Assembly: GCA_963843375.1 (NCBI GenBank)
Contig: CAWJKT010000009.1
Span: 96,001-160,000 of the forward strand
Reading direction: 5' to 3'
Length of the DNA: 64,000 nt
Source: an uncultured Pseudomonadota bacterium
GTDB lineage: Bacteria; Oederibacteriota; Muellerivitia; Muellerivitales; Muellerivitaceae
Under the pieces are notes generated by a model. The model had not been told where the DNA came from. It saw only the letters and a list, made by a program, of their open reading frames with translations, and made no database searches. This document shows, piece after piece, positions 275-62,825 of this stretch. Both the position numbers and the translations under genes were made by a program. Each line of letters begins with the position of its first letter. Position 1 is the stretch's first letter.

Positions 275-302
275 TGTCCACGACGGGGACCCTTCGTAGC
301 AG
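275..302 (+). repeat. Palindromic putative recombination site 1
   Basis: TGTCCACGACGGG-GA-CCCTTCGTAGCAG; right arm partly degenerate. Confidence 0.85.
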
Positions 303-893: not shown

Positions 894-921
894 TGTCCAC
901 GACGGGGACCCTTCGTGGACT
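894..921 (+). repeat. Palindromic putative recombination site 2
   Basis: TGTCCACGACGGG-GA-CCCTTCGTGGACT, 8 bp after the GNAT stop. Confidence 0.9.
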
Positions 922-3966: not shown

Positions 3967-3994
3967 TGTCCACTTCGGGGAGCCGTCATGGACA
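3967..3994 (+). repeat. Palindromic putative recombination site 3
   Basis: TGTCCACTTCGGG-GA-GCCGTCATGGACA. Confidence 0.8.
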
Positions 3995-4296: not shown

Positions 4297-4324
4297 TGTC
4301 CACGATGGGGACCCATCGTGGACA
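4297..4324 (+). repeat. Palindromic putative recombination site 4 (perfect 13-bp inverted arms)
   Basis: TGTCCACGATGGG-GA-CCCATCGTGGACA. Confidence 0.92.
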
Positions 4325-17362: not shown

Positions 17363-17390
17363 TGTCCACGACGGGGACCCTTCGTGGACA
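17363..17390 (+). repeat. Palindromic putative recombination site 5
   Basis: TGTCCACGACGGG-GA-CCCTTCGTGGACA; 27/28 identical to site 2. Confidence 0.92.
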
Positions 17391-17874: not shown

Positions 17875-17902
17875 TGTCCACGATGGGGACCCGTCGTGGA
17901 CA
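17875..17902 (+). repeat. Palindromic putative recombination site 6
   Basis: TGTCCACGATGGG-GA-CCCGTCGTGGACA. Confidence 0.92.
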
Positions 17903-21679: not shown

Positions 21680-24726
<3,047 letters not shown>

Positions 24727-24734
<8 letters not shown>

Positions 24735-26147: not shown

Positions 26148-26179
26148 AGAAAAAAACATAGTAAATAAAAGGAGGACGC

Positions 26180-26461: not shown

Positions 26462-26465
26462 ACCC

Positions 26466-30188: not shown

Positions 30189-30229
30189 TGGTTGTCGAAT
30201 AAACTTATAACCGGCCAAGTTTAGGAAGT

Positions 30230-30257
30230 TGTCCACACTGGGGACCCGCATTGGAAA
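30230..30257 (+). repeat. Palindromic putative recombination site 7 (diverged)
   Basis: TGTCCACACTGGG-GA-CCCGCATTGGAAA, between the atpG stop and the convergent transporter stop. Confidence 0.75.
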
Positions 30258-30269
30258 GGGAAGTGTTTT

Positions 30270-31028
30270 TTACTTGTCTTTCTTTTCTTCAGGCCCCCAA
30301 GTCCAATAAAGCCCCAAATAGCCGACGGTTTGGTCGTCGCCGACGATGGAATGACCGCCTGAAAAGAGCAGGCTGAAATCTTTCGAGAAGTTGAATTGAC
30401 CGCCAATGTTCACCAATAGAAAGCCCTGATCAGCAGTCGTGTCAGACCCCTGAGCGAAAAGCTCACCGCCTAACGTCAACTGATCGCTCAAATCTCTTTG
30501 TAACAACCAGCCGCCAAAGGGGTAGTTGCGCATACCAGCCGCCGCGTTTAAGGCGTAACCGCCTCCGCCATAGGTGGTCCAGGGTCCCCAGCTTTTTTGT
30601 ATCCACAGGGGTAGCTTGTACCAGGTCAGTCCATTGCCTAATCCTTGGGCAGAGTTGCCAGTTGAGACTTCTGCCAGGGGAAAGATACCCATTTGAAAAT
30701 CGTTATCGCCTTCCTTCACAAACCGAAATTTGACGCCCAACTCAGTGTCGCCCAGTCCGTAGGCGGAAGGCCCGCTGATAGGGGAAAAATAATTCAGAGA
30801 AGCGATGACGTGAAGTTGCACGTCCGGTAGGGCACCCCAGTTGAACTCAACGGCGGGGGCTTGAACCATAACGTTTCCGCTAAAACGGTCCAGGGTTTGA
30901 AACTCGTAAAATTCAAAATGGTTGAGATCGACCGGTTCCGGATCATCCGTTAAAAAGGGAGGTCCTGCCCAGGCGGGAAGCGTCGTCAACATTAGTAGAG
31001 CGGCTAAAGGCACAGGCCATTTTTTCAT
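30270..31028 (-). CDS. Putative outer-membrane beta-barrel (MetA-pathway/transporter family)
   Basis: Signal peptide, GPPFLTDDPEP, GLGDTELGVK. Confidence 0.6.
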   Translation of the reverse strand: MKKWPVPLAALLMLTTLPAWAGPPFLTDDPEPVDLNHFEFYEFQTLDRFSGNVMVQAPAVEFNWGALPDVQLHVIASLNYFSPISGPSAYGLGDTELGVKFRFVKEGDNDFQMGIFPLAEVSTGNSAQGLGNGLTWYKLPLWIQKSWGPWTTYGGGGYALNAAAGMRNYPFGGWLLQRDLSDQLTLGGELFAQGSDTTADQGFLLVNIGGQFNFSKDFSLLFSGGHSIVGDDQTVGYLGLYWTWGPEEKKDK

Positions 31029-31041
31029 TCGTTGCCCCCCT

Positions 31042-32265: not shown

Positions 32266-32348
32266 CGCACCTATGCCCTATCTTTTAATTCAAAACCCGT
32301 CCTAAAGTATAAGGGATTTAAGATGACCGCAACGGCAAAGGAGCGTTT

Positions 32349-32765
32349 ATGAAAATGGATAAAGCGTTGATTTTAATCCGTCTGGCTGTCGGAGCCGTTT
32401 TTCTTTCAGAGGGCATTCAAAAATTTCTGTTCTCGGAAACTTGCGGAGCGGGAAGGTTCGCCCAGATCGGCATCCCCGACCCCAATGTGATGGCGCCTTT
32501 TGTGGGTGTGGTGGAAATTGTCTTTGGAGCTTTTATTATTATCGGTTTCCTGACCCGCTTATCTGCTATACCGCTTCTCATCGACATTAGCGTGGCCATC
32601 GCGACTACCAAAATTCCTATCCTGATGGACAAGGGGTTTTGGGCCATGGCCCATGAAGCCCGGACGGATTACGCCATGTTCATGGGGCTTTTGTTTTTGT
32701 TGATAGCGGGCGGCGGTGACTTTTCGGTTGGTTCTGTTTTGAAGTCAGGGAAAAAGAAGCGGTAA
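32349..32765 (+). CDS. DoxX-family membrane protein
   Basis: RLAVGAVFLSEGIQKF..GVVE..GFLTR. Confidence 0.85.
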   Translation: MKMDKALILIRLAVGAVFLSEGIQKFLFSETCGAGRFAQIGIPDPNVMAPFVGVVEIVFGAFIIIGFLTRLSAIPLLIDISVAIATTKIPILMDKGFWAMAHEARTDYAMFMGLLFLLIAGGGDFSVGSVLKSGKKKR

Positions 32766-32807
32766 AGCTGAAGGGTTTAATCGTTAACTATCCATCAGGG
32801 AGAGCGT

Positions 32808-33356
32808 ATGTCAACTTTTGAGAATATCGACGTTTCTATTTTTCGATGGATCAATTCAGATTGGTCAAATCCTGTTTTTGATAAAGTTTTCAGCTTATTT
32901 AGCGATCTTCCGGTTCTCCTGGTTCCCGTTGTCATTTTAATCCTGTGGCTTTTAGTGAAAGGGGGAAAAGCAGGCTGGCTTTTTGTGTTGAAACTGATAT
33001 TGGCAGTGGCAGCTGCCAACGAAATCACGGAGCTTATTTTCAGACCCTGGATCGCCAGGGTGAGGCCCTGCGTCGCTTTGCAGGGGGTGAACACCCCCGA
33101 TGGGATATTGACGTCCTATTCTTTTCCCGCCGGTGCGGCGGCGCTAGTGGCGGCGGGCATGTTGGTTTTGACTTTTCGCTATCCCAAGTACAAATGGCTT
33201 TTTCTTTTTCTGGCGATAATGGTAGGCCTTTCTCGAATTTATTTGGGTGTTCATTATCCAACGGATGTTTTAGGCGGGTTTGCGGTGGGGATTCTGGCAG
33301 GGGGGATGGTAGAGTGGGTTTTTAAGATTGTGAAAAAGTTAATCAAGCGCGCATAG
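32808..33356 (+). CDS. PAP2-family phosphatase
   Basis: R.RP, SFPAG (canonical PSGH altered), SRIYLGVHYPTDV. Confidence 0.8.
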   Translation: MSTFENIDVSIFRWINSDWSNPVFDKVFSLFSDLPVLLVPVVILILWLLVKGGKAGWLFVLKLILAVAAANEITELIFRPWIARVRPCVALQGVNTPDGILTSYSFPAGAAALVAAGMLVLTFRYPKYKWLFLFLAIMVGLSRIYLGVHYPTDVLGGFAVGILAGGMVEWVFKIVKKLIKRA

Positions 33357-33407
33357 TTCAGGTTTTACCGGTCGTTCGCGAAAACGAATCCTTGAAAGGA
33401 AAATAAA

Positions 33408-33782
33408 ATGCAAGATTTGCTTTTGTACCTCGGGGCTTATCTGATCGGTTCTATCCCAGTGGGTTTTTTGATATTAAAAACGTTTAGGAATATCGACATG
33501 AGAAAAGTGTTCGATCGTCCTCTGACCCTATCGCAGAAACTGAAAATAACAGGCATTCCCCTGGGTCTGTTGGTCTTAGCGCTTAATGTGTTGAAGGGCG
33601 TCGCGGCCATTCTTTTAGCCCGCACTCTTTCCCCGACCGATCAACCGGATTGGATATTGGCGGGATTTCTTACCCTCTTAGGCGATGAGTTTCCGGTATT
33701 TCTAAAATTCAAAGGCTATCGGGATATCGGCGTCAGTGTGGGGGTTTTCGCTTCGCTTTTGTTTTGGATGATGACAAAATAA
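33408..33782 (+). CDS. Short PlsY-like (glycerol-3-phosphate acyltransferase-like) membrane protein
   Basis: YLIGSIP, LKG, FPVFLKFKG; shorter than PlsY and motifs degenerate. Confidence 0.55.
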   Translation: MQDLLLYLGAYLIGSIPVGFLILKTFRNIDMRKVFDRPLTLSQKLKITGIPLGLLVLALNVLKGVAAILLARTLSPTDQPDWILAGFLTLLGDEFPVFLKFKGYRDIGVSVGVFASLLFWMMTK

Positions 33783-33796
33783 ACGGGCGAGGATAC

Positions 33797-35026
33797 ATGA
33801 ATAAAATTTTTTTGAACTACGCTGCCGGGATGGTCTTGGCCCTGTCTTCCATACCCGCTTTCGCGGATATGCCGACAATCTCCCCGACTCCGACCAACAC
33901 ACAACCGACATTTGCATTTGGCGGCATGGTGGACGCTTACTATTCCTATAACTTCCCTAACGCTTCGGATAACACGGTGGGTCAAGGCAACAACTCCAGC
34001 GTTTATTTTTATAACGGTAAAGACGACAGCCTGGCTTTGGGGCTGGCAGAATTAACCGCCAACGCGACCCAAGGTCAAGGAAGTATTCATTTAGTCTTGG
34101 CGGACGGTATCAGTGCCTCCCCCAGCGCGGGCGGGGCGGGACTCAATCCATCCAACCCCCAGGGCATCGATGTGCTTCAAGCTTATTTTTCTTATAAACC
34201 CTCGGACTGGATCCTCAGCGCGGGAAGGTTTGTGGGCTGGACGGGAGCGGAAGTCATCGAAAGCCAGTACAACTGGAACTATACCCACTCGCTTCTTTTT
34301 CAATACACCCGTCCCTATTGGACCACCGGCCTTAGCGCGGCCTATCAACCGGACTCTGTTTTTAAAATCACGGGTTACGCGGTGGATGGTTGGAACAACG
34401 CCTCGGGGGCGGGCATCGGCAAGACTTACGGTTTTCAAATGGGCTTGACGCCTGACTCGGTTTGGAAATTCACGTTGAATGGCCTCATTGGTCCGGGTTC
34501 GGGCACTTCCTACGTCAATTTCGCCGGAACGAACGCCGCCAATTTTGTGGGGGAGGCCATTGTCATGTTCAAGGCCACGGACAAGCTTTCCTTCGCCCTA
34601 CAGGCGGACTATGTCGGCCAGGACGTGACCGGCGCTTCGACTCGAGATGTTTGGGGTTCGGGCGTGGATGCATGGGGTATGGCCCTTTATGGCCGTTATC
34701 AGTTTGAAAAAGATTGGGCCTTGGCTTTGAGAATTGAAAATTTGGAAGACAGCGAAAACATGTTCGGCCTCTTCGGAAACAATTTTATGCTTCCCGGCAA
34801 CTCGCTGGCGGTGGCCCCTGCTAAGGATGTGGAAGCCCAAGAATTGACCGTGACTATCGAACACAACTTGATGCCGAATTTAGTATTTAAAGTGGAAGGC
34901 CGAGCGGACGAGGCTTTGTCCGGCAACCAGGAAGTTCCCCTCACCAAAGGACCCTTTATCCCCGGCAGTGTGAACGATCAGGGCGACGAATTTACCTGTA
35001 CAGCTAGCGCGGTCTATAGCCTCTAA
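33797..35026 (+). CDS. Outer-membrane beta-barrel/porin
   Basis: Signal peptide; G.VDAYYSYNF, QAY..Y, G.EVIES..NWNYT.S.LF. Confidence 0.7.
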   Translation: MNKIFLNYAAGMVLALSSIPAFADMPTISPTPTNTQPTFAFGGMVDAYYSYNFPNASDNTVGQGNNSSVYFYNGKDDSLALGLAELTANATQGQGSIHLVLADGISASPSAGGAGLNPSNPQGIDVLQAYFSYKPSDWILSAGRFVGWTGAEVIESQYNWNYTHSLLFQYTRPYWTTGLSAAYQPDSVFKITGYAVDGWNNASGAGIGKTYGFQMGLTPDSVWKFTLNGLIGPGSGTSYVNFAGTNAANFVGEAIVMFKATDKLSFALQADYVGQDVTGASTRDVWGSGVDAWGMALYGRYQFEKDWALALRIENLEDSENMFGLFGNNFMLPGNSLAVAPAKDVEAQELTVTIEHNLMPNLVFKVEGRADEALSGNQEVPLTKGPFIPGSVNDQGDEFTCTASAVYSL

Positions 35027-35108
35027 TTTCGTTTGAGAATTCTTTTCTAGCGTTGCCTTCCACTTATTTGGTTTAGAAACGCCATTAAAATCATCAAAAA
35101 ACTTACCC

Positions 35109-35140
35109 TTGACTCTGGAGTATACTCCAGCACCTATACT
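35109..35140 (+). promoter_or_regulatory. MerR-type promoter/operator
   Basis: TTGACT-20 bp-TATACT with the perfect palindrome CTGGAGTATACTCCAG in the spacer. Confidence 0.85.
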
Positions 35141-35156
35141 CGCGATTGGAGCGGAT

Positions 35157-35537
35157 ATGAAAACTAATGAAACTGTTTTGCAAATTGGACAAGTTTCCAA
35201 AAAAAGTGGAATGTCCATCGACACCATTCGTTATTACGAAAAGGAAGGTTTACTGAAAAAGCCGTCCCGGAGCGAAGGCGGTTTCAGGGTCTATTCCCAG
35301 GAAGCGGTAGACCAATTGGTTTTTATTCGAAAAGCCCAAGCTATGGGACTGACGCTTAAAGAAATTAAAAAAATTATGTGTTGCGGAGATAAAGGGCTTG
35401 AACCTTGCTGTGACCTGACGGTTGATTTGTTCGCGGCAAAAATCAACGAATTTGAAACCAAAATCTCGGAACTCGAAGAGATGAAGAAAAAGTTAAAGAC
35501 CGTATTGGGTGGTTGGGTAACAAAAAAGAGGAAATAA
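35157..35537 (+). CDS. MerR-family heavy-metal-responsive regulator
   Basis: IGQVSK..TIRYYEKEGLL..R.EGGFR.Y; Cys pairs CC...CC. Confidence 0.9.
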   Translation: MKTNETVLQIGQVSKKSGMSIDTIRYYEKEGLLKKPSRSEGGFRVYSQEAVDQLVFIRKAQAMGLTLKEIKKIMCCGDKGLEPCCDLTVDLFAAKINEFETKISELEEMKKKLKTVLGGWVTKKRK

Positions 35538-35547
35538 GGGGGCTGTT

Positions 35548-35985
35548 ATGGCGCTAAAGGTTTTGATTTTATGCACAAAGAATTCCTGTCGCTCACAAAT
35601 GGCGGAAGGTGTATTGAAACATTACGGTGGCGACAAGTTCATTGTAGAAAGCGCGGGTTTAGAACCTACACACGTTAATAAGAACGCCATCAAAGTCATG
35701 AAAGAAATCGGTATTGATATTTCCAATCAAAGTTCAAAGAACGTTGTAAGTTTCTTGGGGCAGTATTTTGGATTCATTATCACGGTTTGTTCTGATGCGG
35801 ATATGAGATGCCCAATTTTCCCAGGCGTGGCACAGCGGCTTTATTGGCCGTTCAATGACCCGCCCCAAACGGAAGAAGAGTCGGCTGAAATACTGGATGA
35901 ATTTCGTAAAGTTCGTGATGAAATTCATGTGAGATTCAAAGAAGTGGCTGAGAAGGGGTTTGGCGCTTTCACGGCTAAGAAGTAA
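35548..35985 (+). CDS. arsC: Arsenate reductase (LMW-PTP type)
   Basis: CTKNSCRSQMAEG, ITVC..CP, W.F.DP. Confidence 0.9.
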   Translation: MALKVLILCTKNSCRSQMAEGVLKHYGGDKFIVESAGLEPTHVNKNAIKVMKEIGIDISNQSSKNVVSFLGQYFGFIITVCSDADMRCPIFPGVAQRLYWPFNDPPQTEEESAEILDEFRKVRDEIHVRFKEVAEKGFGAFTAKK

Positions 35986-35986
35986 C

Positions 35987-36187
35987 ATGACCGGCGAGAT
36001 GGCGTTGTTTCGATGGTTTTTGGGAATGGCACAAATAACAGGCTCGACTATGGCGTTGGTGTTTTTGTTTAGAACTGGTTTGAGTCCGTTGTTCTGGGTG
36101 ACTTTTGCGGTCACAACTATTTTTACCATCACCAGCCGAATCCTATTTTGGCGGGGAAAGCATTGGAAGTCGTTCTTTACGGAATGA
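35987..36187 (+). CDS. Small membrane protein
   Basis: Two hydrophobic segments within the ars operon. Confidence 0.45.
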   Translation: MTGEMALFRWFLGMAQITGSTMALVFLFRTGLSPLFWVTFAVTTIFTITSRILFWRGKHWKSFFTE

Positions 36188-36209
36188 TTCAAATTGAGGG
36201 GACATAACG

Positions 36210-36614
36210 ATGAGAGTTCATGTATCGATTAACGTCAAAAACGTCAGTGAATCGGTTGAGTTCTATGAAAAGGTATTCGGCGTCAAGCCACAAAAGCAGA
36301 CAGCCGATTACGCTAAATTTGATCTGAAAAAACCCGCTCTCAATTTTTCAATGCAGTCTCATTCAGACAGACCCATTAGTCGGGTTACCCATTTCGGGGT
36401 TGAAGTTGATTCGCCTATGGAACTTCAGGATTTTCAAAATAGGCTTAACGCAAGTGGTATTGCCGTAGAGGAAGAAAAACAGACTGCTTGTTGCTTTGCC
36501 CGTCAGGATAAAGCTTGGTTCAAAGACCCAGACGGCAATTCCTGGGAAATATTTCACGTGTATGAGCAGTTGCCAATTCATCCTTCTTCCAATTCCAGTC
36601 AGTGTTGTGCCTAA
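36210..36614 (+). CDS. ArsI/CadI-family VOC metalloenzyme
   Basis: RVHVSINV, HFGVEV, CCFARQDK.W..DPDGN.WE. Confidence 0.88.
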   Translation: MRVHVSINVKNVSESVEFYEKVFGVKPQKQTADYAKFDLKKPALNFSMQSHSDRPISRVTHFGVEVDSPMELQDFQNRLNASGIAVEEEKQTACCFARQDKAWFKDPDGNSWEIFHVYEQLPIHPSSNSSQCCA

Positions 36615-36641
36615 TTAATCCATCAGATAAAGGAAATGTAA

Positions 36642-37703
36642 ATGAGTGATCTTTCTAAAAAGATGAATGTCTTTGAACGTTACCTCACCCTTTGGGTTGT
36701 GCTTTGTATGGTGTTGGGTGTTTTGATTGGCAAAGTTTTACCCCAGGTTGTTACGGCGTTACAGCAAATGGAATTTGGCACAGGTAGCCATATCAACATT
36801 CCTATAGCTATTCTGATTTGGTTGATGATCTACCCGATGATGTTGAAGATAGACTTTGCCTCAATTAAGAACGTCGGCAAGCGTCCCAAAGGACTCTTGG
36901 TAACCTTGTTTGTTAACTGGCTCGTGAAGCCTTTCTCAATGGCTTTTTTGGGATGGTTTTTCTTTAAGGTGCTTTTTGTGCCCTTCTTGGGAGCGGAAGT
37001 GGCTAACCAGTATTTGGCAGGTGTCATCATCTTAGCCGCCGCACCTTGCACCGCTATGGTATTTGTCTGGTCTTATTTAGCGGGCGGGGATGCCGCTTAC
37101 ACGTTAGTTCAAGTATCGGTTAATGACCTGATTATGCTGGTCGCTTTTGCTCCCATTGTTCGGTTCTTGGTATCGGGCGCGTCGGGGTTGGAAGTTCCTT
37201 TCCAAGTTCTTTTATATTCAGTCCTTATTTTTGTAGTTATTCCACTCTTACTAGGCGCTGTCAGTCGTTGGCTCCTCATCCAAAAGAGTGGAGCCAAATG
37301 GTTCAATGAAAAGTTTTTGCCCGTATTCCAACCCATCACCATATTGGCTTTGCTGGCTACTCTGGTTTTGATCTTTGCCTTTCAGGCTCAAAACATTACG
37401 GGTAGGTGGTTGGATGTATTTTTAATCGCGATTCCCATTCTTATCCAGGTTTACTTTAACGCGGGGCTTGCCTATGGTTTGATGAAGCTTTTGAAAGTGC
37501 CTTATTCAGTGGCCGCGCCTGGCGCGTTGATTGGTGCCTCGAATTTCTTTGAATTGGCGGTCGCTACTGCGATCGCTTTGTATGGCCCGGGCAGTGGAGC
37601 GGCTTTAGCAACGGTAGTGGGGGTATTGGTCGAAGTGCCTGTCATGTTGTCGGTTTGTTCCATTTGTACTAATACAAAGGGTTGGTTTGGAAAGGAAAAA
37701 TAA
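36642..37703 (+). CDS. acr3: ACR3 arsenite efflux transporter
   Basis: FERYLTLWV, NWLVKPF, APCTAMVFVW, GASNFFELAVA, LVEVPVML. Confidence 0.95.
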   Translation: MSDLSKKMNVFERYLTLWVVLCMVLGVLIGKVLPQVVTALQQMEFGTGSHINIPIAILIWLMIYPMMLKIDFASIKNVGKRPKGLLVTLFVNWLVKPFSMAFLGWFFFKVLFVPFLGAEVANQYLAGVIILAAAPCTAMVFVWSYLAGGDAAYTLVQVSVNDLIMLVAFAPIVRFLVSGASGLEVPFQVLLYSVLIFVVIPLLLGAVSRWLLIQKSGAKWFNEKFLPVFQPITILALLATLVLIFAFQAQNITGRWLDVFLIAIPILIQVYFNAGLAYGLMKLLKVPYSVAAPGALIGASNFFELAVATAIALYGPGSGAALATVVGVLVEVPVMLSVCSICTNTKGWFGKEK

Positions 37704-37706
37704 ACC

Positions 37707-38126
37707 ATGAAAAAGATTCTTTTTCTTTGCGTCGCGAATTCTGGCAGAAGTCAAATGGCCGAAGGAATCGCAAAAGAACTTTGGGGCGATAGCGCCCTTA
37801 TTCAAAGCGCCGGGTCAAAGCCATCATTGGTGAATCCCTATTCCATCAAGGTTCTGGCAGAGATTGGGATTAATGCTTCAGGCCAATATTCCAAGTCGGT
37901 GGCGGATATCGACCCTTCAACAGTGGATACGGTTATTACTCTTTGCGCCGAAGAAGAGTGTCCTGTTTTCTTGGGTAAGGCAGAGAGGATTCATTGGCCC
38001 TTGCCCGACCCTGGTGTTGGGGCCAATAGCGAAGAAGAAAAGCTTCAAAGTTTTCGTAAAGTTCGCGATGAAATAAAAAGCCGATTGAATAAGTTTAAAA
38101 ACGAAATGGGCGTTAAGGCAATTTAA
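37707..38126 (+). CDS. arsC: Arsenate reductase (second copy)
   Basis: CVANSGRSQMAEG, ITLC..CP, HWPLPDP. Confidence 0.88.
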   Translation: MKKILFLCVANSGRSQMAEGIAKELWGDSALIQSAGSKPSLVNPYSIKVLAEIGINASGQYSKSVADIDPSTVDTVITLCAEEECPVFLGKAERIHWPLPDPGVGANSEEEKLQSFRKVRDEIKSRLNKFKNEMGVKAI

Positions 38127-38161
38127 TAAAATTTAGTTCAAAAATACCAAAGAACTAACCT

Positions 38162-38189
38162 TGTCCACGGCGGGGACCTGTAGTAAACA
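38162..38189 (+). repeat. Palindromic putative recombination site 8 (diverged right arm)
   Basis: TGTCCACGGCGGG-GA-CCTGTAGTAAACA, 35 bp after the arsC stop. Confidence 0.78.
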
Positions 38190-39149: not shown

Positions 39150-39165
39150 AGGGTTGTCCACGACG

Positions 39166-41106
39166 GTGCGTCCAGAAAAGGCAGGTGTGTTCAGCAAGAG
39201 ATAGTCTTGCATGGGTAATAGCCAAAGCCCATTAGCTAGGATGGCAGGCAAGCGGGAAACCTAATGTCTGAAGCCCATCAACAAAGCCATCGAAAGGATG
39301 GTGAGCGAGTCGTCGGGCCGTAACGAAAGTAAATGCACAGGTGGCCCCGAAAACAATTGCCTCGAAGGCCGAGTCCGCCGTCGTGGGACGAAGGCATCAT
39401 GGGCCAGCGCAGAGATATGGCTGAAGCGCTGGAACACTTCGGCGGGGTGATAGCAACGGCACGATGACAAGGACACGCCAAGCAACTGGAGAAACCCTCC
39501 TTGCCCCAAGCAGAAATGCTTGGAGAAGGGTAAGCCGTATAACCGTGACGCGGGAAAACGGCTGAAGGCGAGAGGGTTTAGGATGGGTTCATGGTAGCGA
39601 CGAAGCGTGGTAATGCCCGTGGAGCGAAGGAACCCTGCTGCTGTTAAGTCTCTCGACAAAACGGAAGGCAGTGACGGTATGAAAAAAACGTCTATCAACC
39701 TGCAAGACCTGAGACGAGAGATATACGTCAAAGCGAAGGCTGAAAAGAACTGGAGTTTCTGGGGACTGTACACTCATGTTTGCAAGATGAAAACGCTTCA
39801 ACAGGCATACCGGATGGCTAAGGTAAATAACGGAGCCCCAGGAATAGATGGGGTAACGTTTGATGCCATTGAGGGAGCTGGAGTGGAGCCATTTCTGGAA
39901 AGCATCCGGGGTGAATTAGTTCAAGGCACGTATAAGCCCGCTCGAAATCGGAAGAAGGAAATACCCAAGGGAAATGGGAAGGTAAGAGTCCTTGGGATAC
40001 CGAACATTCGGGATAGAGTAGTCCAGGGAGCGATGAAGCTCATTCTGGAGCCGATTTTTGAGGCCGATTTTCAAGAAGGGTCCTATGGGTATCGACCCAA
40101 GCGGACCGCTCATGCGGCTGTGAACAGGGTAGCATCAGCAATCGTTTGTAGAAAAACCCGAGTCATCGATGTAGACCTCAAGGCATATTTCGACACGGTA
40201 AGGCATGACCTGCTGATGAAGAAAGTTGCCCGAAGGGTTGAGGATGAAACGGTGTTGGGATTGTTGAAGATGATCCTGAAAGCCAGCGGCAAAAGAGGAG
40301 TCCCGCAGGGAGGGGTTATTTCTCCGCTTCTGGCAAATCTCTACCTCAACGAGGTGGATAAGATGCTGGAAAAGGCAAAAGAAGTGACCCGGCAAGGGAA
40401 GAACGACTATATCGAATATGCGAGGTTTGCTGACGATATGGTGATCCTTGTTAATGGATATCCGCAATGGGAATGGTTGGCAAAGGCTGCCTACCGAAGG
40501 TTACTTGAAGAGTTGACCAAGCTCGACTTACAAATCAACACGGACAAGACACGGATAGCAGACCTAACGAAAGGAGAAAGTTTCGGATTTCTGGGGTTTG
40601 ACTTTCGACAGGTGAAAACCCGTCGAGGGAAATGGGGAGTGAAGTTCACGCCGAAAATGAAGGCTCGGACAACACTTTTAGGCAAGCTCAAGGAAACATT
40701 TCGAAGCTTTCAATCCCAGCCGGTGCAGAGGGTGATTGAGCTGATCAATCCCAAACTGCGTGGATGGGTCAATTACTTTCGGATAGGAAATTCTAGTCGT
40801 TGTTTTAATTACGTGGAAAGATGGGTCGAGAATAAAATCAGAAGGCACATGATGCGTGCGAAGAAGCTTGATGGTTTTGGGCGGAATAGGTGGAGTAGGG
40901 AATGGATAAATAAGTATCTGGGGTTGTACAGAAGTTACCAAATACGTTATTACCAAGAACCGAAAGCACTACCAGTCCAATAAGTCACATAAACTTTGAC
41001 ATGAAGACAACAGGTGAGCGTAGTGCGGGAAATCCGCACGCTACGTTCGAGGAGGCGGGGACTGGAAACGGAGCCAGAAGGCCACCGCACCAGCCCTCGA
41101 CCCTAC
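39166..41106 (+). mobile_element. Group II intron (AGC catalytic triad, IIB-like)
   Basis: 5' GTGCG; domain V GAGCGTAGTGCGGGAAATCCGCACGCTACGTTC at 41016-41048; 3' end CCCTAC; internal RT ORF. Confidence 0.92.
39679..40983 (+). CDS. ltrA: Group II intron reverse transcriptase/maturase without endonuclease domain
   Basis: GAPGIDG, RVLGIP.IRDRVVQ, SYGYRP, PQGGVISPLLAN, RFADD, FLGF, LRGWVNYF. Confidence 0.93.
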   Translation: MKKTSINLQDLRREIYVKAKAEKNWSFWGLYTHVCKMKTLQQAYRMAKVNNGAPGIDGVTFDAIEGAGVEPFLESIRGELVQGTYKPARNRKKEIPKGNGKVRVLGIPNIRDRVVQGAMKLILEPIFEADFQEGSYGYRPKRTAHAAVNRVASAIVCRKTRVIDVDLKAYFDTVRHDLLMKKVARRVEDETVLGLLKMILKASGKRGVPQGGVISPLLANLYLNEVDKMLEKAKEVTRQGKNDYIEYARFADDMVILVNGYPQWEWLAKAAYRRLLEELTKLDLQINTDKTRIADLTKGESFGFLGFDFRQVKTRRGKWGVKFTPKMKARTTLLGKLKETFRSFQSQPVQRVIELINPKLRGWVNYFRIGNSSRCFNYVERWVENKIRRHMMRAKKLDGFGRNRWSREWINKYLGLYRSYQIRYYQEPKALPVQ

Positions 41107-41159
41107 AGGAGCCATCGTGGACACCTAATTTCCTTGCTTGAGAATAACCCCAAGTGATT

Positions 41160-42005
41160 TTAGGATTTACGGCCCTTGACCGCCGAGTTCCTTTTTAAAA
41201 CCCTCTGAACCTTATCCCAAAGCTTCTTCGATATGAGGGGTTGGTATTTGCCCTCGTAATGTTGTCCCTTCCATTGGAATGTTCCCGAATACATCTTGTT
41301 GGTGAGGATTTTGTGAACCGTACTCCGGGGAAGTGGCTTATTGCTTTTGCGAAAGACTAATCCCTTGGCTTTGAATTTCTCCGTTATCTCGTTGAGGGAA
41401 TAATCCCCTGAAGAATAGGTTTTGAATAGACGGATTACAAAAGGAGCCAAACGGCGATCCGGTTTGATGGTTCTTTTTCCCGCCTTTCCCAAAATGTTCT
41501 TATAACCCATGGGAGCCACCGAAGGCCAAATCCCCTGTTCCGCTTTTTCCGTCATGCCTTTACGAGTCTCTTCCGAAAGGTTATCCACGTAGTTCTTGGC
41601 CATCAAGACCTTAATCCCGTGGATGAACTTGTCGGCGGATTTGGAGTGGCTTGAAACGACGGCCCCTTCCTTGACCAAATGGATCTCAATGTCGATATCC
41701 TCCAAACAGACGTAATCTTTGAAATTGCGGTATAGGCGGTCGGTCTTCTCGACCAGCAGGTACTTGCAGTTGGAGTTGTTGATTAGGAAATCCACCATCT
41801 TCGCGAAGCCTACCCGACCCGATTGTTTGGCGGTTTCCACGTCGCGGAATTCCTTCACAATCTCGAAACCCTGGGTTTGACCATATTGACGAAGAAGCCT
41901 CAACTGGGCGGGGATTGAGAAGCCCTGCTTTTCTTGTCCCTTCGAGGACACCCGGACATAGAGGACGGCCTGGATGGCTCGACTGACCTTGCGATTTGAT
42001 TTCAT
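41160..42005 (-). CDS. Serine recombinase (catalytic plus recombinase domain; no zinc-ribbon/coiled-coil)
   Basis: YVRVSS catalytic Ser, DRLYR, APMGY, ILTN.MY.G, PLISKKLWDKVQ, then stop after 281 aa. Confidence 0.9.
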   Translation of the reverse strand: MKSNRKVSRAIQAVLYVRVSSKGQEKQGFSIPAQLRLLRQYGQTQGFEIVKEFRDVETAKQSGRVGFAKMVDFLINNSNCKYLLVEKTDRLYRNFKDYVCLEDIDIEIHLVKEGAVVSSHSKSADKFIHGIKVLMAKNYVDNLSEETRKGMTEKAEQGIWPSVAPMGYKNILGKAGKRTIKPDRRLAPFVIRLFKTYSSGDYSLNEITEKFKAKGLVFRKSNKPLPRSTVHKILTNKMYSGTFQWKGQHYEGKYQPLISKKLWDKVQRVLKRNSAVKGRKS

Positions 42006-42082
42006 TTATTTCCTCCGGTAGATAAGTTAAGGCATAAAGTTTCCATTTCAGAGGATAGGACCTGAGAGGAATAAGGCGAAAT

Positions 42083-42439
42083 GGAGTTCAATCCATTTGA
42101 ACTCAAAAAGTGGTTTTAGAGATTATTTATGGCGGGTTTCCAAAATTTTTGGAACGTAATGATGGAAGTTATTGGGAAGGTTTCTCACGACTTTATGGGA
42201 CTAAGTGGTTTATTGGGGTAAGTCTGAAGGGAAAGGACTCGTGGCGCAAGTGAGTGGCATAAAGGCTATAAGAATCAGGGATGAATGAGGACGGTGTAAG
42301 TTCTTAGGACAAGCTGGCGGATAAAGCCCAGAGGAAACCAGCGGCAGTGGAGTGAGTGTTGGGTGTTTTTGTCCATTCCAAAGGAGTTCAATTCATTTGA
42401 ACTCAAAAAGTGGACTTGAACCTTATTCAAGGCGGGTTT
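42083..42439. repeat. Two ~57-bp imperfect direct repeats 300 bp apart, each with palindrome GAGTTCAA-N5-TTGAACTC
   Basis: 42083-42139 and 42383-42439: GGAGTTCAATYCATTTGAACTCAAAAAGTGG...GGCGGGTTT. Confidence 0.8.
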
Positions 42440-42531
42440 TTCCATGCTCCGATGGCGAACCCCCCTATCTACGCATCAATAGAAATGCGTAAACCGATAG
42501 GGGGGTTCGCCCTCTCCGCATGGAAAAACCC
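42434..42531. other. Long inverted repeat / stem-loop
   Basis: GGGTTTTTCCATGC..GGCGAACCCCCCTATC..GATAGGGGGGTTCGCC..GCATGGAAAAACCC. Confidence 0.75.
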
Positions 42532-42815
42532 TTAAAAGTTATGAAACAGATTTGATGCGTAGATAAAAGAGTAATTGAATAGGAACAAGATTAAAGACAA
42601 AGACAGACATAGAGATTGAGGTGGGAGGACGGGAGTGAAGTGGTGGGGGAATTGAAGGGGAGCAGGAAAGACAGACCGTTATTGATGGAATGAGTGGGTG
42701 GTGGAAGATGAAGGGGTAGCGGGGGGTCAGTGGTAGGAGTGAAGTGGGTGTGGGTACGGTAGGGGGAGCAGGAAAGACAGGCCGTTGGGGAGCAGTGGTT
42801 GGGGTGAATGGCAGA

Positions 42816-43415
42816 TTAGTTTTGGATTTTCCGGGACCAGGCTTTTTCAGGATCTTCCAGGTCGCGGTTGACGAGGGACAGGTCGAATTCCTCGGGGTCA
42901 TAGGGTCTCCCGAACCACTCTATTAAATCCTCTCGATCCGGGTGGTTGGGATTCTTCATGGCTTCCACCAGGTTCTCGTATCCGGTGGTGCTTCCACAAT
43001 CCTCAGGGGGACAGGCGCGGGCCCCGGAGAGGCAGAGGGGGTATGGGCGGAGGGGATCAGAGGCTAGAACATCCTCTAAGACGATGTCATGTTCCCAGGC
43101 GTCCCCAAAGTCATAGAGGTATTCCAGGCGGTCGCCGGGTTTAAAAAGGACCCTTGAAAGGGGCACCTCACGGGAGTCGGTGTACTCTTTATCGTCGTAG
43201 CGGTCGTTTTCCGGGTCGGGTAGCTGAAAATGGGTTTCGTCCTTGATGAATTCGTGCAGGTGGCTGTCCGACCAGCCCATAGCCAGTTGAAGGACCTCAT
43301 GGAGTTCGTGAAGGGTAGTGGTGGGGGAAACCAGCAGTTGTCTCCAGATGGGCGGGTGAATGTCCTTGAGGGTGACTTTGAGCCGGTAGAGGCGTTGGGT
43401 TTTGGAGGGTGTCAT
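42816..43415 (-). CDS. Plasmid pRiA4b ORF-3 family protein
   Basis: PPIWR.LLV..TL.ELH..LQ.AMGW.DSHLHEF, YLYDFGD.WEH, G.RACPPEDCG. Confidence 0.88.
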   Translation of the reverse strand: MTPSKTQRLYRLKVTLKDIHPPIWRQLLVSPTTTLHELHEVLQLAMGWSDSHLHEFIKDETHFQLPDPENDRYDDKEYTDSREVPLSRVLFKPGDRLEYLYDFGDAWEHDIVLEDVLASDPLRPYPLCLSGARACPPEDCGSTTGYENLVEAMKNPNHPDREDLIEWFGRPYDPEEFDLSLVNRDLEDPEKAWSRKIQN

Positions 43416-44323
43416 GAAATTTCCGTCCTTTATGAAAGGGTTTTGGTTTTTTTGGTGGCCGTTTAAGGCCGGGTGCAACGGAATCGAAATATAACATCAC
43501 AAGGCACGAAAGAAAATAACCTTGGGGATGATTCATTAAGGGGGCTTCCAGGAAAACCACCAGGAAGCCCCCTTTTTTTTGAGTGGATGGAAGGGGATGG
43601 GGTAGTTAAGGGAAAACGGACTTATTCCAAGATAAAAAAAGGTATGTAATAAAAAACAGACTTGAAGACAACACTCAGAATCAAGAAGGCCATTTAAGGG
43701 GGAACGAAAAAGGGAAAGCACCTTTTTCGTGGGCCTTCCCCCTGGGTCAAGCTACCCGCTCTGCCAATCGCAAATGGCGATTGGCACAACCAAGGCTCTG
43801 GTGCCGTCTTGTGGACGGCACCAAGGTGAAAACCGCGGGCATCTTGACCCACCCCTATCCTCAGGGGCTTTGCCCCCGAACCCCTTACCAAAATGGAATT
43901 GCCCCTTTTGGAATTCCCGGAACCGTTGGTGGGGATTGAGTGGGAGCGTTGAAGATCCCTTTCCTTTTCCAGCGGGGACCCCACCAAGCCGTAAGCCCCC
44001 TCACCGTCTTGCAATCCTTCCCAATTATTTTAGCTCTTCTTGGAATAACGTTTTGGGGGCTACACAGCCGTTCGGCTGCAAGCCGGCGTGGGGGCTTACG
44101 GATTGGTACACCCCCGCTGGCACAGTCCCGTCTGGGCGACGAACAAATGCCGCCCTGACAGGACTGCGATAAAGGAAAGGGGCGTTTGAGTCCTCAGGGC
44201 CGTTTCCAGAAAGCCAAAGTTCGGCGTAGGCCAAAAAGATACCGCCTCGGTTTGTCTTTCTGGAAAGGGTCCCCCTTCCCCTGACGGGGAAGCGGCGCTT
44301 CGGGTGGAGAGGATTCAAAATCT

Positions 44324-44371
44324 AGGACTATTCAGTCGAAGGACTGTTCAGTCAAAGGACTGATCAGTCCA
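44324..44371. repeat. Three tandem 16-bp units AGGACTRWTCAGTCVA
   Basis: aggactattcagtcga / aggactgttcagtcaa / aggactgatcagtcca. Confidence 0.75.
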
Positions 44372-44856
44372 AGGATTGGTGAATGGATGAAAGCTGACAG
44401 CTAAAGCTGTCAGCTTTCCTGATACTGGTTGTTATTTTTTCTGAGGATCACATAGGGTTCGTGAGTGGTAGTTCCTTCCTGAAGTTTCTTAAGTCATCCC
44501 CTACAGCCAACCTAGAGTTCCGGTAGTTGAGGTATTTGGACGATGGTCAGTTTCGGGAGTCCGTCCCGAGGCCTCATTGCGGTTTTTCTTGATTCCACGG
44601 CCACCCTTGCAAGGCAACTTTTGCGCCAGCCGAAGTTCACGGCTGTCACAAAAGTTAAGGGTGTCCTTCGTTTTTTTGTTCCTCATTAGTTCCTGAATTT
44701 TCCCACGCACGAACTCCCCAAACTCCGGCTTTTGCCTTCTCCCTCCCCCCTCAGGCTTTTGAGGGGGGAGGGGGAAGGCGGTTTTTAAAAGGCGAAGTCC
44801 TTTCGGACAAAGTCCCTTCGAACTAAGCCCAAAAAACAAAAAGGAGGTGGTGGGAG

Positions 44857-44994
44857 ATGACGGAGGAACAGGAAAAAAAGGAACCGAAATGGTGGGAGGC
44901 CGAAGGGAAGGAGCCTTTGGGCTGGAAGGTCAGGGAAGAGGAATTGGACTTGGCCTTGAAGAAGGTTTTGCAGGAATGGATGGGCGAGGCATGA
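44857..44994 (+). CDS. Small hypothetical protein (45 aa; not in ORF track)
   Basis: RBS AGGAGG; MTEEQEKKEPKWWEAEGKEPLGWKVREEELDLALKKVLQEWMGEA. Confidence 0.4.
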   Translation: MTEEQEKKEPKWWEAEGKEPLGWKVREEELDLALKKVLQEWMGEA

Positions 44995-45100
44995 ATGCCC
45001 GGCATGACATGCCCCGTATGACATGCTTCGCATGAAACCCATTCAACCTTTTGACTTTAAGGAACTCATTCACTCACTAACCAACACAGGAGGAAAAACC

Positions 45101-45979
45101 ATGAAGAGGAATATAGCGGAAGAAATTACGGGCAGGATTTTAGAGGACTTGGAAAAGGGAGTTTTGCCTTGGGAAAAACCCTGGAAAGCGGGACGGGGTT
45201 TGCCCCTGCCGATGAACGCCAGCACCCAGAAGCACTACCGAGGAATTAACGTCTTTGTCCTTTGGGACGAACAGGCGAGGCGGGGATTTTCTTCCCCGGC
45301 TTGGGTGACCTTTAACCAAGCCAAGGCTTTGGGAGGAACCGTCAAAAGGAGCGAAAAGGGAACGGGGGTTGTTTTCTACAAGCGACTCGCCAAGACCAAT
45401 TCTTTGAACCTCGACGATGAAGTCATGCTGGAAGAACAGACATTTTGGGTCTTGAGGACTTATACGGTCTTTAACCTCGACCAAGTGGAGGGGCTTGACC
45501 ACCTGAAACCCAAAGTTGAAACGGTGAAGCCTTTTGCCGCCATCGAGAGAGCCGAACGGCTCTTGAAGGATTCGGGAGCGAAGATCATTCACGCCGCCAT
45601 TGACCGGGCTTTTTATGAACCCAAGGGGGACTTGATTACCCTTCCCTTGAAAGGGAGCTTCAAAAATCCGGAAACCTATTACTCCACGGCCCTGCATGAA
45701 TTGACCCACTGGACCGGAAACGAGGCCCGATTGAATCGGCAATTCGGGAAGCGGTTTGGGGACCAAGCCTACGCTTTCGAGGAATTGGTGGCCGAAATGG
45801 GAGCGGCATTTCTTTGCGTCTCTTGCGGCATTCCTTATGACACCCAGCACGCCCGCTATATCGGTGACTGGATGAAAATTTTGAAGGACCACAAGCGGGC
45901 CATCTTCACGGCGGCGGCAAAAGCCCAGGCCGCTATGGACTTTGTGTTGAAAACCCAATTTGAGGAAGCGGTAGCCTGA
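45101..45979 (+). CDS. ardC: ArdC anti-restriction ssDNA-binding/zincin protein
   Basis: PW.KPW, YRGIN, W.TFNQA, VFN.DQ, LHELTHWT, YAFEELVAE. Confidence 0.9.
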   Translation: MKRNIAEEITGRILEDLEKGVLPWEKPWKAGRGLPLPMNASTQKHYRGINVFVLWDEQARRGFSSPAWVTFNQAKALGGTVKRSEKGTGVVFYKRLAKTNSLNLDDEVMLEEQTFWVLRTYTVFNLDQVEGLDHLKPKVETVKPFAAIERAERLLKDSGAKIIHAAIDRAFYEPKGDLITLPLKGSFKNPETYYSTALHELTHWTGNEARLNRQFGKRFGDQAYAFEELVAEMGAAFLCVSCGIPYDTQHARYIGDWMKILKDHKRAIFTAAAKAQAAMDFVLKTQFEEAVA

Positions 45980-45993
45980 AAGGAGGCGGAACC

Positions 45994-46471
45994 ATGAATA
46001 AGCAATTGGCCTTGAGATTTAATTTGGAAAATTTGCCCGTTCCAACGGTTCCGCCCATTTCATGGGCGGAGGCCAGAGAATCGTACAAGCGGGGTCCGGT
46101 GGTGAGCGCTCCACAGGATGCGGCGGATTATTTTCGCAGGTATATCGGGGGAAAGCCCAATGAGTCTTTCCTCTGCATGTATCTCGATCACCGCAACCAT
46201 GTTTTGGACGTGGTCTTGGAAAGTGAGGGAACGGTGGATCATGCGGCGGTCTATCCCCGGCAAATTTTAAAACGGGTTTTGGACTTGGGGGGTACCGGAA
46301 TCATCCTGTCCCACAATCACCCGGCGGGGAGCTTGGAACCATCGGAGGGGGACAAGGCTTTGACCCGGCAGATTTTAGCCGGAGCGCCGCGCCCTGGGGG
46401 TTTCCATTCATGATCACTTGATTGTCACACATGAGGGGCACTTTTCGTTTCGGCAGGCGGGGTTGTTATGA
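45994..46471 (+). pseudogene. radC: RadC/JAB-domain protein with +1 frameshift near 46387
   Basis: E.F..MYLD, GTVD..VYPR, HNHPAG..PS..D; the IHDHLIV..FSFRQAGLL tail is in another frame. Confidence 0.8.
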
Positions 46472-46607
46472 AATCGCCTTGGAAAGGAGGCCGACCGCCT
46501 CCTTTGCCGACTTGTCTTCGTGACCAAAGGGGGCGGCGCTGGGGGATTGGTTACAAAAATGAAAAATTTGGTTTTTTTAGGGGTAGCTCCGAGGGCGACC
46601 CCTTATT

Positions 46608-47222
46608 TTATTTCTTGAAGGATTTTTGAACACGCCCAACCCGTTCAGCCTTGTTTCCGGGATTGTCGTCCACTTCCGGTGGGAATATTTTGGAAGAATA
46701 TCTGTCCAAAACCGAATCCAGGGGGATTCTTAAATCCGCGGCTTTGACAAGCTCACGGTTTTGGTTGTCCTGGAAAGTAGCGATTTCAACGTGACGGCCA
46801 AAATCCTTGACGTTCTCCAGGGCTGAGGAATACATTCCGTCCTCGGTTACGACGATTGCGGTATCAAAGGTTTTCTTGGCGGCGTGAAAAACCAGATCAG
46901 AGGCGAATAAAACATCCATTCCCTTTTCGTGGACCCTTCCGTCCGACGTGGTATAGAGGCGTCCCAAACGCAGTTCCAGATGTGGCGTTTTATCGAGTGA
47001 ATCGAGAAACGAAATTTGGGTTTTGGCTTTGTCGGGAACGAGGTCTTTATCGTAGGCCACGTTGTAGTAATAGGTTTTCACCAGCTGCCGGTCGGGACCG
47101 GCCAGGGCGAGGCTTAGCTGGTAATAATCGACCCGGGTGACCCGGTTGTTACGCTTGAGGCCGAAATAAAAATTGTTTCCATCGATGAAAACACAGACAC
47201 GTTCCATATACCGATCAACCAT
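46608..47222 (-). CDS. NYN-domain (LabA/DUF88) PIN-like protein
   Basis: VFIDGNN, EKGMDV..ASD, EDG. Confidence 0.85.
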   Translation of the reverse strand: MVDRYMERVCVFIDGNNFYFGLKRNNRVTRVDYYQLSLALAGPDRQLVKTYYYNVAYDKDLVPDKAKTQISFLDSLDKTPHLELRLGRLYTTSDGRVHEKGMDVLFASDLVFHAAKKTFDTAIVVTEDGMYSSALENVKDFGRHVEIATFQDNQNRELVKAADLRIPLDSVLDRYSSKIFPPEVDDNPGNKAERVGRVQKSFKK

Positions 47223-47251
47223 TCTTGTGTTAATAAAATACCGGCTTTGGA

Positions 47252-47479
47252 TTAGGAAGTTATTTTCATAAGCTTCCAGGGCTCCACCCCTACCACTTCT
47301 GACGCGCGAAGGAAGGATTCTAAGCTCATGGGATTTCCAGTTTCCAGCAAAACCCAGCGTTTGGGCGTACAGCCATAGGCTTTGGCGGCCTTGGAAATGG
47401 AAAGGCCCGCTTTTTTCCGGGCCTTGCGGATGTTCTGGCCGATTTTCTGGTGGAATTCCTCGCGGTTCATGACACCCAT
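47252..47479 (-). CDS. XRE-family HTH regulator
   Basis: IGQNIRKARKKAGLS...LETG. Confidence 0.75.
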   Translation of the reverse strand: MGVMNREEFHQKIGQNIRKARKKAGLSISKAAKAYGCTPKRWVLLETGNPMSLESFLRASEVVGVEPWKLMKITS

Positions 47480-56761: not shown

Positions 56762-56763
56762 TT

Positions 56764-62823: not shown

Positions 62824-62825
62824 TC

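Follow-up and report, generated by a model that had tools for sequence, protein, structure and literature searches.

The polarity of recombination by serine recombinases is set by the central dinucleotide of their sites, and the small members of this group act on short sites such as res site I with 28 bp and hix with 26 bp. Integrons store and shuffle their gene cassettes at attC sites, which comprise 57-141 bp and contain R'', L'', L' and R' boxes. In large serine recombinases (LSRs) such as A118-LI integrase, Bxb1, PhiC31 and SPbeta, an N-terminal resolvase-type catalytic domain is followed by the recombinase domain (RD) and further by a zinc ribbon domain (ZD) and a coiled coil (CC). According to Rutherford et al. 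2013 (PMC3783163), the RD-binding region covers half-site positions 1-12, the ZD motif is located at half-site positions 16-24 in attP and 11-19 in attB, and the parts following the RD read the outer att DNA and set the directionality of attP x attB recombination. Here we analysed a stretch of 64,000 nucleotides (nt), referred to as the window, from an uncultured Pseudomonadota bacterium (GenBank assembly GCA_963843375.1, contig CAWJKT010000009.1, positions 96,001 to 160,000), in which a gene for a serine recombinase of only 281 amino acids (aa) adjoins the last palindrome of an array of 28-bp sites. From the comparisons described below, we propose that this gene encodes a functional derivative of an LSR, which lacks zinc ribbon and coiled coil and keeps the catalytic domain, the RD and a basic tail, and that this short recombinase recombines the 28-bp sites, a reading to which we assign a probability of roughly 0.6.

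The open reading frame (ORF) of the short recombinase is preceded by GGAGG, located eight bases 5' of its start (for coordinates see Table 1). In the 281-aa protein, only PF00239 and PF07508 were detected with Pfam, whereas the zinc ribbon PF13408 was not found and no match to HTH_7 was obtained. The residues Y16, R18, S20, D89, R90 and R93 are invariant among 46 aligned sequences. The initial annotation had placed the stop directly after PLISKKLWDKVQ, but this motif is followed by 14 further residues, i.e. the basic tail RVLKRNSAVKGRKS. The protein thus ends 14 aa past KVQ, without the PF13408 zinc ribbon and its four cysteines that characterize LSRs. At the same point of the alignment, the long relatives continue with FAFSGLxxCGHCGC..YYHC..C, which represents the zinc ribbon. 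The coiled coil is absent as well, because the protein ends before the respective position. Moreover, there is no room for a zinc ribbon 3' of the ORF, since the stop codon is separated from the nearest palindrome by just 36 nt (41124-41159). A tblastn search with the zinc-ribbon and coiled-coil halves of five long relatives did not yield a match in the whole assembly, which is 80% complete (best E value 0.5); a split gene was rejected on the basis of this missing coding remnant. The absence of a CxxC continuation before the adjacent palindrome, as noted in the initial annotation, is thus borne out by the length of the gap, by Pfam and by tblastn.

A phmmer search against PDB sequences only matched catalytic domains, namely 3guv, TP901-1 (3bvp) and ISC1926 (6dgc). 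The AlphaFold2 model, which was based on the alignment of 46 sequences, reached a mean predicted local distance difference test score of 81.5 and a predicted template modelling score of 0.50. For residues 151-270 the block means lie at 82-96, and the RD fold in this model spans approximately aa 168 to 279. The top ranks obtained with Foldseek were full-length serine integrases, i.e. 9dxd_A (E value 1.4e-13) followed by 9y66, Bxb1 (9iu2) and PhiC31 (9rah), and a match to the PhiC31 fragment 4bqq, consisting of the N-terminal domain and the RD, was also found (E value about 1e-9). The RD alone superposes on LI integrase (6dnw_A) and on 4kis_A with a root-mean-square deviation of 2.0-2.6 over 131 columns. 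Taken together, Pfam, the model and Foldseek confirm a 281-aa ORF that combines a catalytic domain with a complete RD, as initially proposed, and that carries neither zinc ribbon nor coiled coil.

Table 1 Features of the short recombinase gene, the gene-adjacent palindrome with its intron and the array sites in the window. Positions refer to the window; percentages of identity and comparisons between genomes are given in the text.
Feature	Position	Strand	Remarks
Short serine recombinase ORF	41160..42005	-	281 aa, ATG start; stop codon 41160-41162
Resolvase-type catalytic domain PF00239	41529..41969	-	aa 13-159, Pfam E value 4e-21
Recombinase domain (RD) PF07508	41187..41447	-	Pfam aa 187-273, profile positions 4-102 of 102, E value 2.5e-15
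C-terminal basic tail RVLKRNSAVKGRKS	41163..41204	-	aa 268-281; without Cys; located where long relatives have the RD-ZD linker
Gene-adjacent palindrome, left part TGTCCACGACG, 11 nt	39155..39165	+	severed by intron
Gene-adjacent palindrome, right part AGGAGCCATCGTGGACA, 17 nt	41107..41123	+	36 nt from stop codon
Group II intron, ~1.94 kb	39166..41106	+	starts GTGCG, ends CCCTAC; between site positions 11 and 12
Reverse transcriptase/maturase ORF (RVT_1 + GIIM) inside intron	39607-40983
Rfam RF02003 match	39192-39328		119 bits
Array site	275..302	+	palindrome scan of window
Array site	894..921	+	palindrome scan
Array site	3967..3994	+	palindrome scan
Array site	4297..4324	+	palindrome scan
Array site	17363..17390	+	palindrome scan
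Array site	17875..17902	+	palindrome scan
Degenerate site	30230..30257	+	7 mismatches, own count
Last array site before the gene-adjacent one	38162..38189	+	5 mismatches to consensus

Homologues were searched in a collection of 5.8 billion proteins, covering lengths of 154-492 aa, and the best 120 of 3775 matches were considered. Among these, the 19 nearest clusters (P0001-P0019, 69-98% identity) are all 275-283 aa long and harbor PF00239 and PF07508 only, and PF13408 is present from 59-61% identity downward. The nearest full-length relatives (53-61% identity) are ordinary LSRs of mostly 505-550 aa. On contigs from one genome per species, 80 loci were kept of 263 relatives. One of these (L003, 77% identity) contains an ORF of 278 aa. 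Among the remaining 79 loci (53-60% identity), ORF lengths range from 428 to 971 aa in 76, with most at 505-550; three deviate with 310-349 aa, and one of them runs off its contig. A tree of 46 rows, calculated from the region common to them, groups the 19 short proteins in a single clade (support 100/99, stem 0.47), which is nested inside LSRs of about 520 aa. The selection analysis covered the genes of five genomes (G000, which contains the window, G012, G010, G006 and G025). The nonsynonymous and synonymous differences per site (pN and pS) amount to 0.075-0.195 and 0.54-0.78, respectively, and the ratio of the corresponding substitution rates (dN/dS) to 0.08-0.16 in the seven of ten pairs with a computable dS, the remaining three being saturated. 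Both the catalytic part and the RD are constrained where dN/dS could be computed. From these sequence comparisons we conclude that the short recombinase is a natural, selected form under purifying selection and not a recent truncation. The scenario that had been named against the initial proposal, i.e. closest homologues of 450-550 aa, fails, since such lengths are restricted to 61% identity or less, and the proposed conservation of a length of about 280 aa is apparent in all 19 nearest clusters.

A recent truncation, a pseudogene or a frameshift due to an assembly error would be in line with the fact that many core genes on the same contig appear to be split by indels. However, the same length occurs in the 19 clusters, which derive from several sources, in four other genomes of the order and on four metagenome contigs. 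In addition, a dN/dS of about 0.1 speaks against a pseudogene or artefact, as does the lack of a zinc-ribbon remnant downstream or elsewhere in the assembly, which makes this explanation highly improbable. The split or shortened core genes are located at positions 160001-252000 of contig C9 of G000 (loci L116-L120) and include RmlD in two ORFs, a methionyl-tRNA synthetase of 356 aa and an indole-3-glycerol phosphate synthase of 122 aa; they are probably due to indel errors in the assembly. G006 also harbors two additional recombinase copies that are truncated at the 5' end (L113 on its contig C6 and L114 on its contig C8; aa 106-274 and 113-274), which are about 98% identical to the full copy of this genome across the region they have in common and the bases that follow it.

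The palindrome next to the gene belongs to a family of 28-bp sites with two arms of 13 bp around a central GA and the consensus TGTCCACGACGGG GA CCCGTCGTGGACA. In G000, 58 copies with up to five mismatches are distributed over eight contigs, and a reversed control pattern did not match in any of the 32 genomes of the order; the family thus greatly exceeds what chance would produce. According to a crude ORF calling, 45 of the 58 copies, plus the split copy, are intergenic and 13 overlap with an ORF call. The sites usually begin 5-50 nt past the stop of a gene located on the strand that matches the GA orientation. The central GA is asymmetric, and the sites within one array all point in the same direction. 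Alignment of the 58 sites revealed that the conservation is limited to about 30 nt without any flanking signal, and that the arm facing the upstream gene hardly varies, in contrast to the four inner bases of its counterpart (0.7-0.9 bits). The genes between the sites of two dense clusters encode toxin-antitoxin systems (YafQ/RelB, several VapBC, HicB, BrnA), GNAT acetyltransferases, aldo-keto reductases and PhyH, among others. Site-to-site units of one G000 array (L083) recur singly on unrelated contigs of G006, G010, G012, G025 and G028 with 75-94% nucleotide identity, and the homology stops at the sites. Because single units recur in this manner, we conclude from the alignments that the site-bounded units are mobile cassettes. 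Duplicate cassettes that could be used to map the crossover were not found inside G000.

Three other explanations for the palindromes were rejected. Intrinsic terminators do not apply, since no T-run follows the hairpins in the 58 aligned sites. The same holds true for repetitive extragenic palindromes with their transposases (REP/RAYT), since Y1 transposases do not track the sites: PF01797 is absent (E value ≤ 1e-5) from G000, G002 and G028, which hold 40, 35 and 76 sites, respectively. A classical integron was rejected as well, because the integron-integrase model TIGR02249 found nothing in the 32 genomes of the order at an E value ≤ 1e-30, a search that did not give a positive in control genomes either; the best match in G000 reached 47.5 bits compared with a cutoff of 265.

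Two site-bounded units of the window are considerably larger. The unit at 30230-38189 encodes a module for resistance to chromate and arsenic with chromate transporter, MerR, ArsC and ACR3, and in the 12-kb unit at 17875-30257 a complete ATP-synthase operon is found together with acetate kinase, phosphoketolase and aldolase.

In all five genomes with a short recombinase gene (G000, G012, G010, G006 and G025), a site is located 8-36 nt past the stop codon, with its centre reading TC on the strand of the gene, and this gene-adjacent site is in each case the last one of an array that converges on the gene. One of the two truncated copies in G006 shows the same terminal-site arrangement. Four further genes of the short clade were available on metagenome contigs (L121, L122, L123, L124). 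L123 and L124 show the same arrangement, with the site 9 and 34 nt past the stop, respectively, and in L122 the contig ends inside the site. Hence, seven of nine full-length loci have a site 8-36 nt past the stop, always oriented alike, and in one more locus the contig terminates too early, so that the linkage to similar palindromes anticipated in the initial annotation is indeed present. The gene-proximal arm has a type of its own, which depends on the protein lineage: it reads (C/T)GTCCCCTnnGGG in G012, L122, L123 and L124, TGTTCCTTTTGGG in G006, TGTTCACTTTGGG in G025 and TGTCTACTACGCC in G010. The genes on the 5' side vary, with ArdC close by in G000, G006 and G025, RadC in G000 and G025, and neither of them in G012 and L122-L124. 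Similarly, the cassette beside the gene-adjacent site differs in every genome. The constant unit across the loci is therefore the gene together with its site only. On the 5' side of the gene in the window (42816-47479), we observed genes for PRiA4_ORF3, ArdC, RadC, a NYN-domain protein and an XRE regulator, which are typical of mobile elements.

The close proximity of gene and site could also date from the truncation itself. According to this explanation, an array site landed in the zinc-ribbon region of an integrase gene of about 520 aa, the remnant was kept for another role, such as dimer resolution elsewhere or as a DNA-binding regulator, and recombination of the palindromes was lost, so that the adjacent site represents a scar. 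Such an event would be in agreement with the fact that the short clade arose once and has a long stem, that almost all of its members have the site directly behind the newly formed stop codon, and that the studied LSRs depend on ZD and CC. However, both domains are under strong purifying selection and the catalytic residues are invariant, which, at the level of sequence, argues for retained catalysis. The adjacent site also appears to be recombinationally live, since the neighboring cassette differs per genome and cassettes are received at the centre of the site, and no other repeated candidate site was found near the gene in more than one genome. We therefore consider a scar of this kind as rather improbable.

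The comparison of L123 with G012 illustrates what appear to be an empty and a filled site. In L123, the recombinase gene and an XRE-like gene immediately flank a site with two lineage-type arms, TGTCCCCTCAGGG TC CCCCTAGGGGACA. In G012, the recombinase gene is followed by a site with a lineage arm and a family arm, a cassette, a consensus site, a second cassette, a site with a family arm and a lineage arm (CCCCAAGGGGACA) and the flank. This flank aligns with the one of L123 over ACCwTT, ATTTTACACC and the XRE-like gene, which shows 68% nucleotide identity. Such a pattern would be expected after cassettes had been inserted into the middle of the gene-adjacent site, as far as can be judged from this single case.

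In the mechanism that we propose, a dimer of the short recombinase would bind one 28-bp site, with the alpha-E helix and the RD of each subunit covering one arm of 13 bp. The premise of the initial annotation that the RD reads the inner half-site agrees with the RD-binding region at positions 1-12 given in PMC3783163. Without any domain behind the RD, the protein is accordingly expected to occupy about 13 bp of each half-site, in line with the 13+2+13 arrangement of the palindrome. The enzyme would then cut at the central GA dinucleotide and exchange strands with a second site; binding and cutting of the sites by the short recombinase as well as the position of the cut are inferred from the sequence. 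Owing to the asymmetry of GA, ligatable products would require that both sites point the same way, and circles with one site would therefore be inserted into the array or excised from it, while the array would stay co-oriented. Both the asymmetric GA and the uniform orientation of the arrays fit the rule that the central dinucleotide determines polarity. The initial annotation had instead considered recombination between any two equivalent sites in either direction to be possible. This is not suggested by the sequence: the gene-adjacent site is not equivalent to the others, as its gene-proximal arm differs and varies with the recombinase lineage, and recombination in either direction is disfavoured, because the central GA is asymmetric and all array sites are co-oriented. 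The site behind the stop codon might serve as the entry site of the platform, a role comparable to that of attI in integrons, with the gene-proximal arm being specific to the recombinase lineage and the distal arm originating from the cassette family. Since the short recombinase is intact under selection and adjoins the last palindrome of a cassette array, it appears to be the best candidate for the enzyme that moves the cassettes.

The gene and the sites also coincide in their distribution, which speaks for the short recombinase. Sites with up to one mismatch are present in 24 of the 31 genomes of the family (f1) and in none of the 68 other genomes of the phylum; if two mismatches are allowed, 28 of 32 genomes of the order contain sites. 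The short recombinase is encoded in 5 of the 31 family genomes and in 0 of the 68 others. Between 15 and 69 sites (mean 46) were counted in each of the five genomes that encode it, compared with 0-76 (mean 12) in genomes without the gene (one-sided Mann-Whitney p = 0.0025, with the genomes being related and not independent).

Several of our observations weigh against recombination of the sites by the short recombinase. The higher site count would also follow if the gene merely targeted the arrays. At an E value ≤ 1e-90, 19 of the 24 site-bearing family genomes do not contain a short recombinase, and no copy was found in G028 (99% complete, 76 sites with up to two mismatches), G024 (98%, 44 sites) and G008 (99%, 23 sites). 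Because genomes with up to 76 sites have no gene, recombination of the sites by this enzyme is unproven. G000 itself has one gene copy versus site clusters on eight contigs. The adjacency of gene and site may be one inherited arrangement instead of a repeated association, and in L121 the nearest consensus site is 110 nt away and in the orientation of the gene. The comparison of the empty and the filled site is a single case, in which the G012 flank contains an additional ORF of 264 aa, and a pattern for far-end hybrid sites with the arms of G006 and G025 did not match in the four genomes scanned. Furthermore, the zinc domain is required for tight DNA binding, and the sites can equally be read as 11-6-11, i.e. 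in the layout of Xer-type tyrosine recombinases. Removal of the coiled coil weakens the dimerisation of LI integrase more than 100-fold, as stated in PMC5499577.

Alternatively, the arrays may be built by another enzyme, for instance a host Xer-type tyrosine recombinase that reads 11-6-11 or an unrecognised recombinase, and the short recombinase would then only serve as integrase for a mobile element with array sites as its attachment site. As expected for this case, sites are abundant in genomes without the gene, and ArdC and RadC (G000, G025), ArdC (G006) and XRE or toxin-antitoxin genes nearby on the 5' side are of the kind that transferable elements typically carry. A 7-kb block of G025 that includes the gene is flanked on both sides by sites of the same orientation. 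One arm of the site is also far better conserved than the other, and unequal arm conservation is known from dif-like sites. On the other hand, the 5' neighbors are not kept in G012 or L122-L124, where gene and site alone are constant. The piece inserted in G012 relative to L123 consists of cassettes and not of the recombinase neighborhood. The nearest candidate for a far-end site in G000 is located about 105 kb to the right, at C9:242536, with no nearer element end found, and from about C9:185000 this interval holds core genes such as those for ribosomal proteins, methionyl-tRNA synthetase and trp genes. Finally, no specific tyrosine recombinase was found to be linked to the arrays, although no search was aimed at Xer genes. 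Overall, we regard arrays built by another enzyme as unlikely, though as the strongest of the alternatives considered here.

A 105-kb element reaching from the gene to C9:242536 was rejected, since it would comprise ribosomal, tRNA-synthetase, trp and polysaccharide genes from about C9:185000 onwards and no tRNA gene is present at the far site. The site at C9:242536-242563 is the first of the next array and directly follows a polysaccharide gene cluster; with a non-family left arm AATCCAACAAGAG and a family right arm, it resembles a boundary hybrid site.

A group II intron, which had been missed in the initial annotation, interrupts the gene-adjacent palindrome of the window (referred to there as site 9). 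The D1-D4 element of the intron is the sole match in the window at the Rfam gathering threshold. An intron cutting the recombinase gene was rejected: the ORF is left intact, as its stop codon lies 36 nt away from the site. Intron copies with at least 94% identity are located between positions 11 and 12 of the site and in the same orientation in all five cases examined, i.e. the one in the window, three of nine in G025 and one in G028 (loci L208, L217, L223, L209; the 5' flank of the L223 copy is lost at the contig start). In contrast, the three copies with 80-83% identity (one in G010, two in G007) are located elsewhere. From their positions we conclude that the palindrome itself is the homing target of this group II intron, which parallels the group IIC-attC introns of integrons, an intron lineage homing into a recombination site according to PMC3001079. 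A public contig (run X19, record 22) contains the same gene, with 26 differences and 9 gaps over 1539 nt, followed by an uninterrupted site TGTCCACGACGGGGAGCCATCGTGGACA, and the sequence beyond this site is unlike the window. The intron is therefore a local insertion, and the sequence neighboring the site varies; contigs from the public runs do not cover the window at 38.2-39.1 kb and 40.7-41.0 kb, and small joints in them, most of which have short sides and low similarity, were disregarded. Since the intron breaks the entry site as DNA, the platform in the window is probably disabled locally.

Other features of the window are located upstream of the recombinase gene. A near-perfect hairpin of 100 nt at 42434-42533 has an RNA fold energy of -68 kcal/mol, and related hairpin arms are present at C8:98845 and C6:224286-224346, where tyrosine-recombinase-like genes are located no more than about 2 kb away in each case; the hairpin may represent the end of another mobile element. 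Two direct repeats of 60 nt (42080-42139 and 42380-42439) are 83% identical and 300 nt apart, and each of them carries the palindrome GAGTTCAA-N5-TTGAACTC; no further copy of the repeat exists in the genome. At 52985-63899, two WYL regulators precede a DISARM-like defence cluster, which encodes a helicase of 1258 aa, an MZB/DUF1998 protein, a PLD nuclease, a DrmE_C protein and a C5 cytosine methylase.

Returning to the short recombinase as the enzyme acting on the palindromes, we tentatively propose, at slightly less than even odds, that the locus represents a serine-recombinase counterpart of the integron. An LSR derivative without zinc ribbon would capture and release cassettes at 28-bp palindromes, using the site at its own stop codon for entry and GA as the sole source of polarity, without a distinction between attP and attB and without a directionality factor. 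If this is true, the protein would be the smallest known working LSR scaffold, with about 280 aa and a symmetric site of 28 bp, and a natural test of whether zinc ribbon and coiled coil are necessary. It would also constitute a second and mechanistically unrelated solution to the integron problem of cassette storage and shuffling in an uncultured lineage from soil and peat. In addition, a compact recombinase for short sites, either reversible or controlled by polarity, would be of interest for genome engineering. In the full-text literature, with subscription journals being outside the scope, we did not find a description of a natural serine recombinase that contains only the RD after its catalytic domain or of a serine-recombinase cassette array.

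Compared with the LSRs, with which it shares the order of catalytic domain and RD, the short recombinase ends at the RD-ZD linker, and a 28-bp near-perfect palindrome in dozens of copies takes the place of a unique attP/attB pair of 40-50 bp. The PhiC31 structure 4bqq has the same two-domain content, but is a laboratory truncation for crystallography, whereas here a natural and selected clade is concerned. With small serine recombinases such as the gamma-delta/Tn3 resolvase and Hin/Gin, it would have in common that a dimer acts on a short palindrome with a central dinucleotide, and its catalytic domain matches 1gdt, 1zr2 and 5cy1 in Foldseek. These enzymes comprise about 180-210 aa with a C-terminal helix-turn-helix (HTH) of about 40 aa, in contrast to 281 aa and an RD of about 110 aa. 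Also, neither accessory sites nor an enhancer were seen beside the palindromes, where conservation stops after about 30 nt. The N-terminal MerR-like HTH of IS607-type serine transposases is missing, since the catalytic domain starts at aa 13, and 6dgc matches the catalytic part only. In contrast to integrons, including sedentary chromosomal ones and clusters of attC sites lacking integron integrases (CALINs), an IntI tyrosine integrase was detected in 0 of 32 genomes by the above TIGR02249 search with its lack of control-genome positives, and the sites are confined to 28 bp without R/L boxes or flanking conservation. Furthermore, the integron recombinase gene is located upstream of the array and divergent from it, whereas here it is found at the downstream end and converges on the array. 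Nevertheless, both systems have in common co-oriented small cassettes that are rich in toxin-antitoxin and acetyltransferase genes and are each followed by a palindromic site, a recombinase gene that abuts a special entry site, and arrays that also occur without a recombinase gene.

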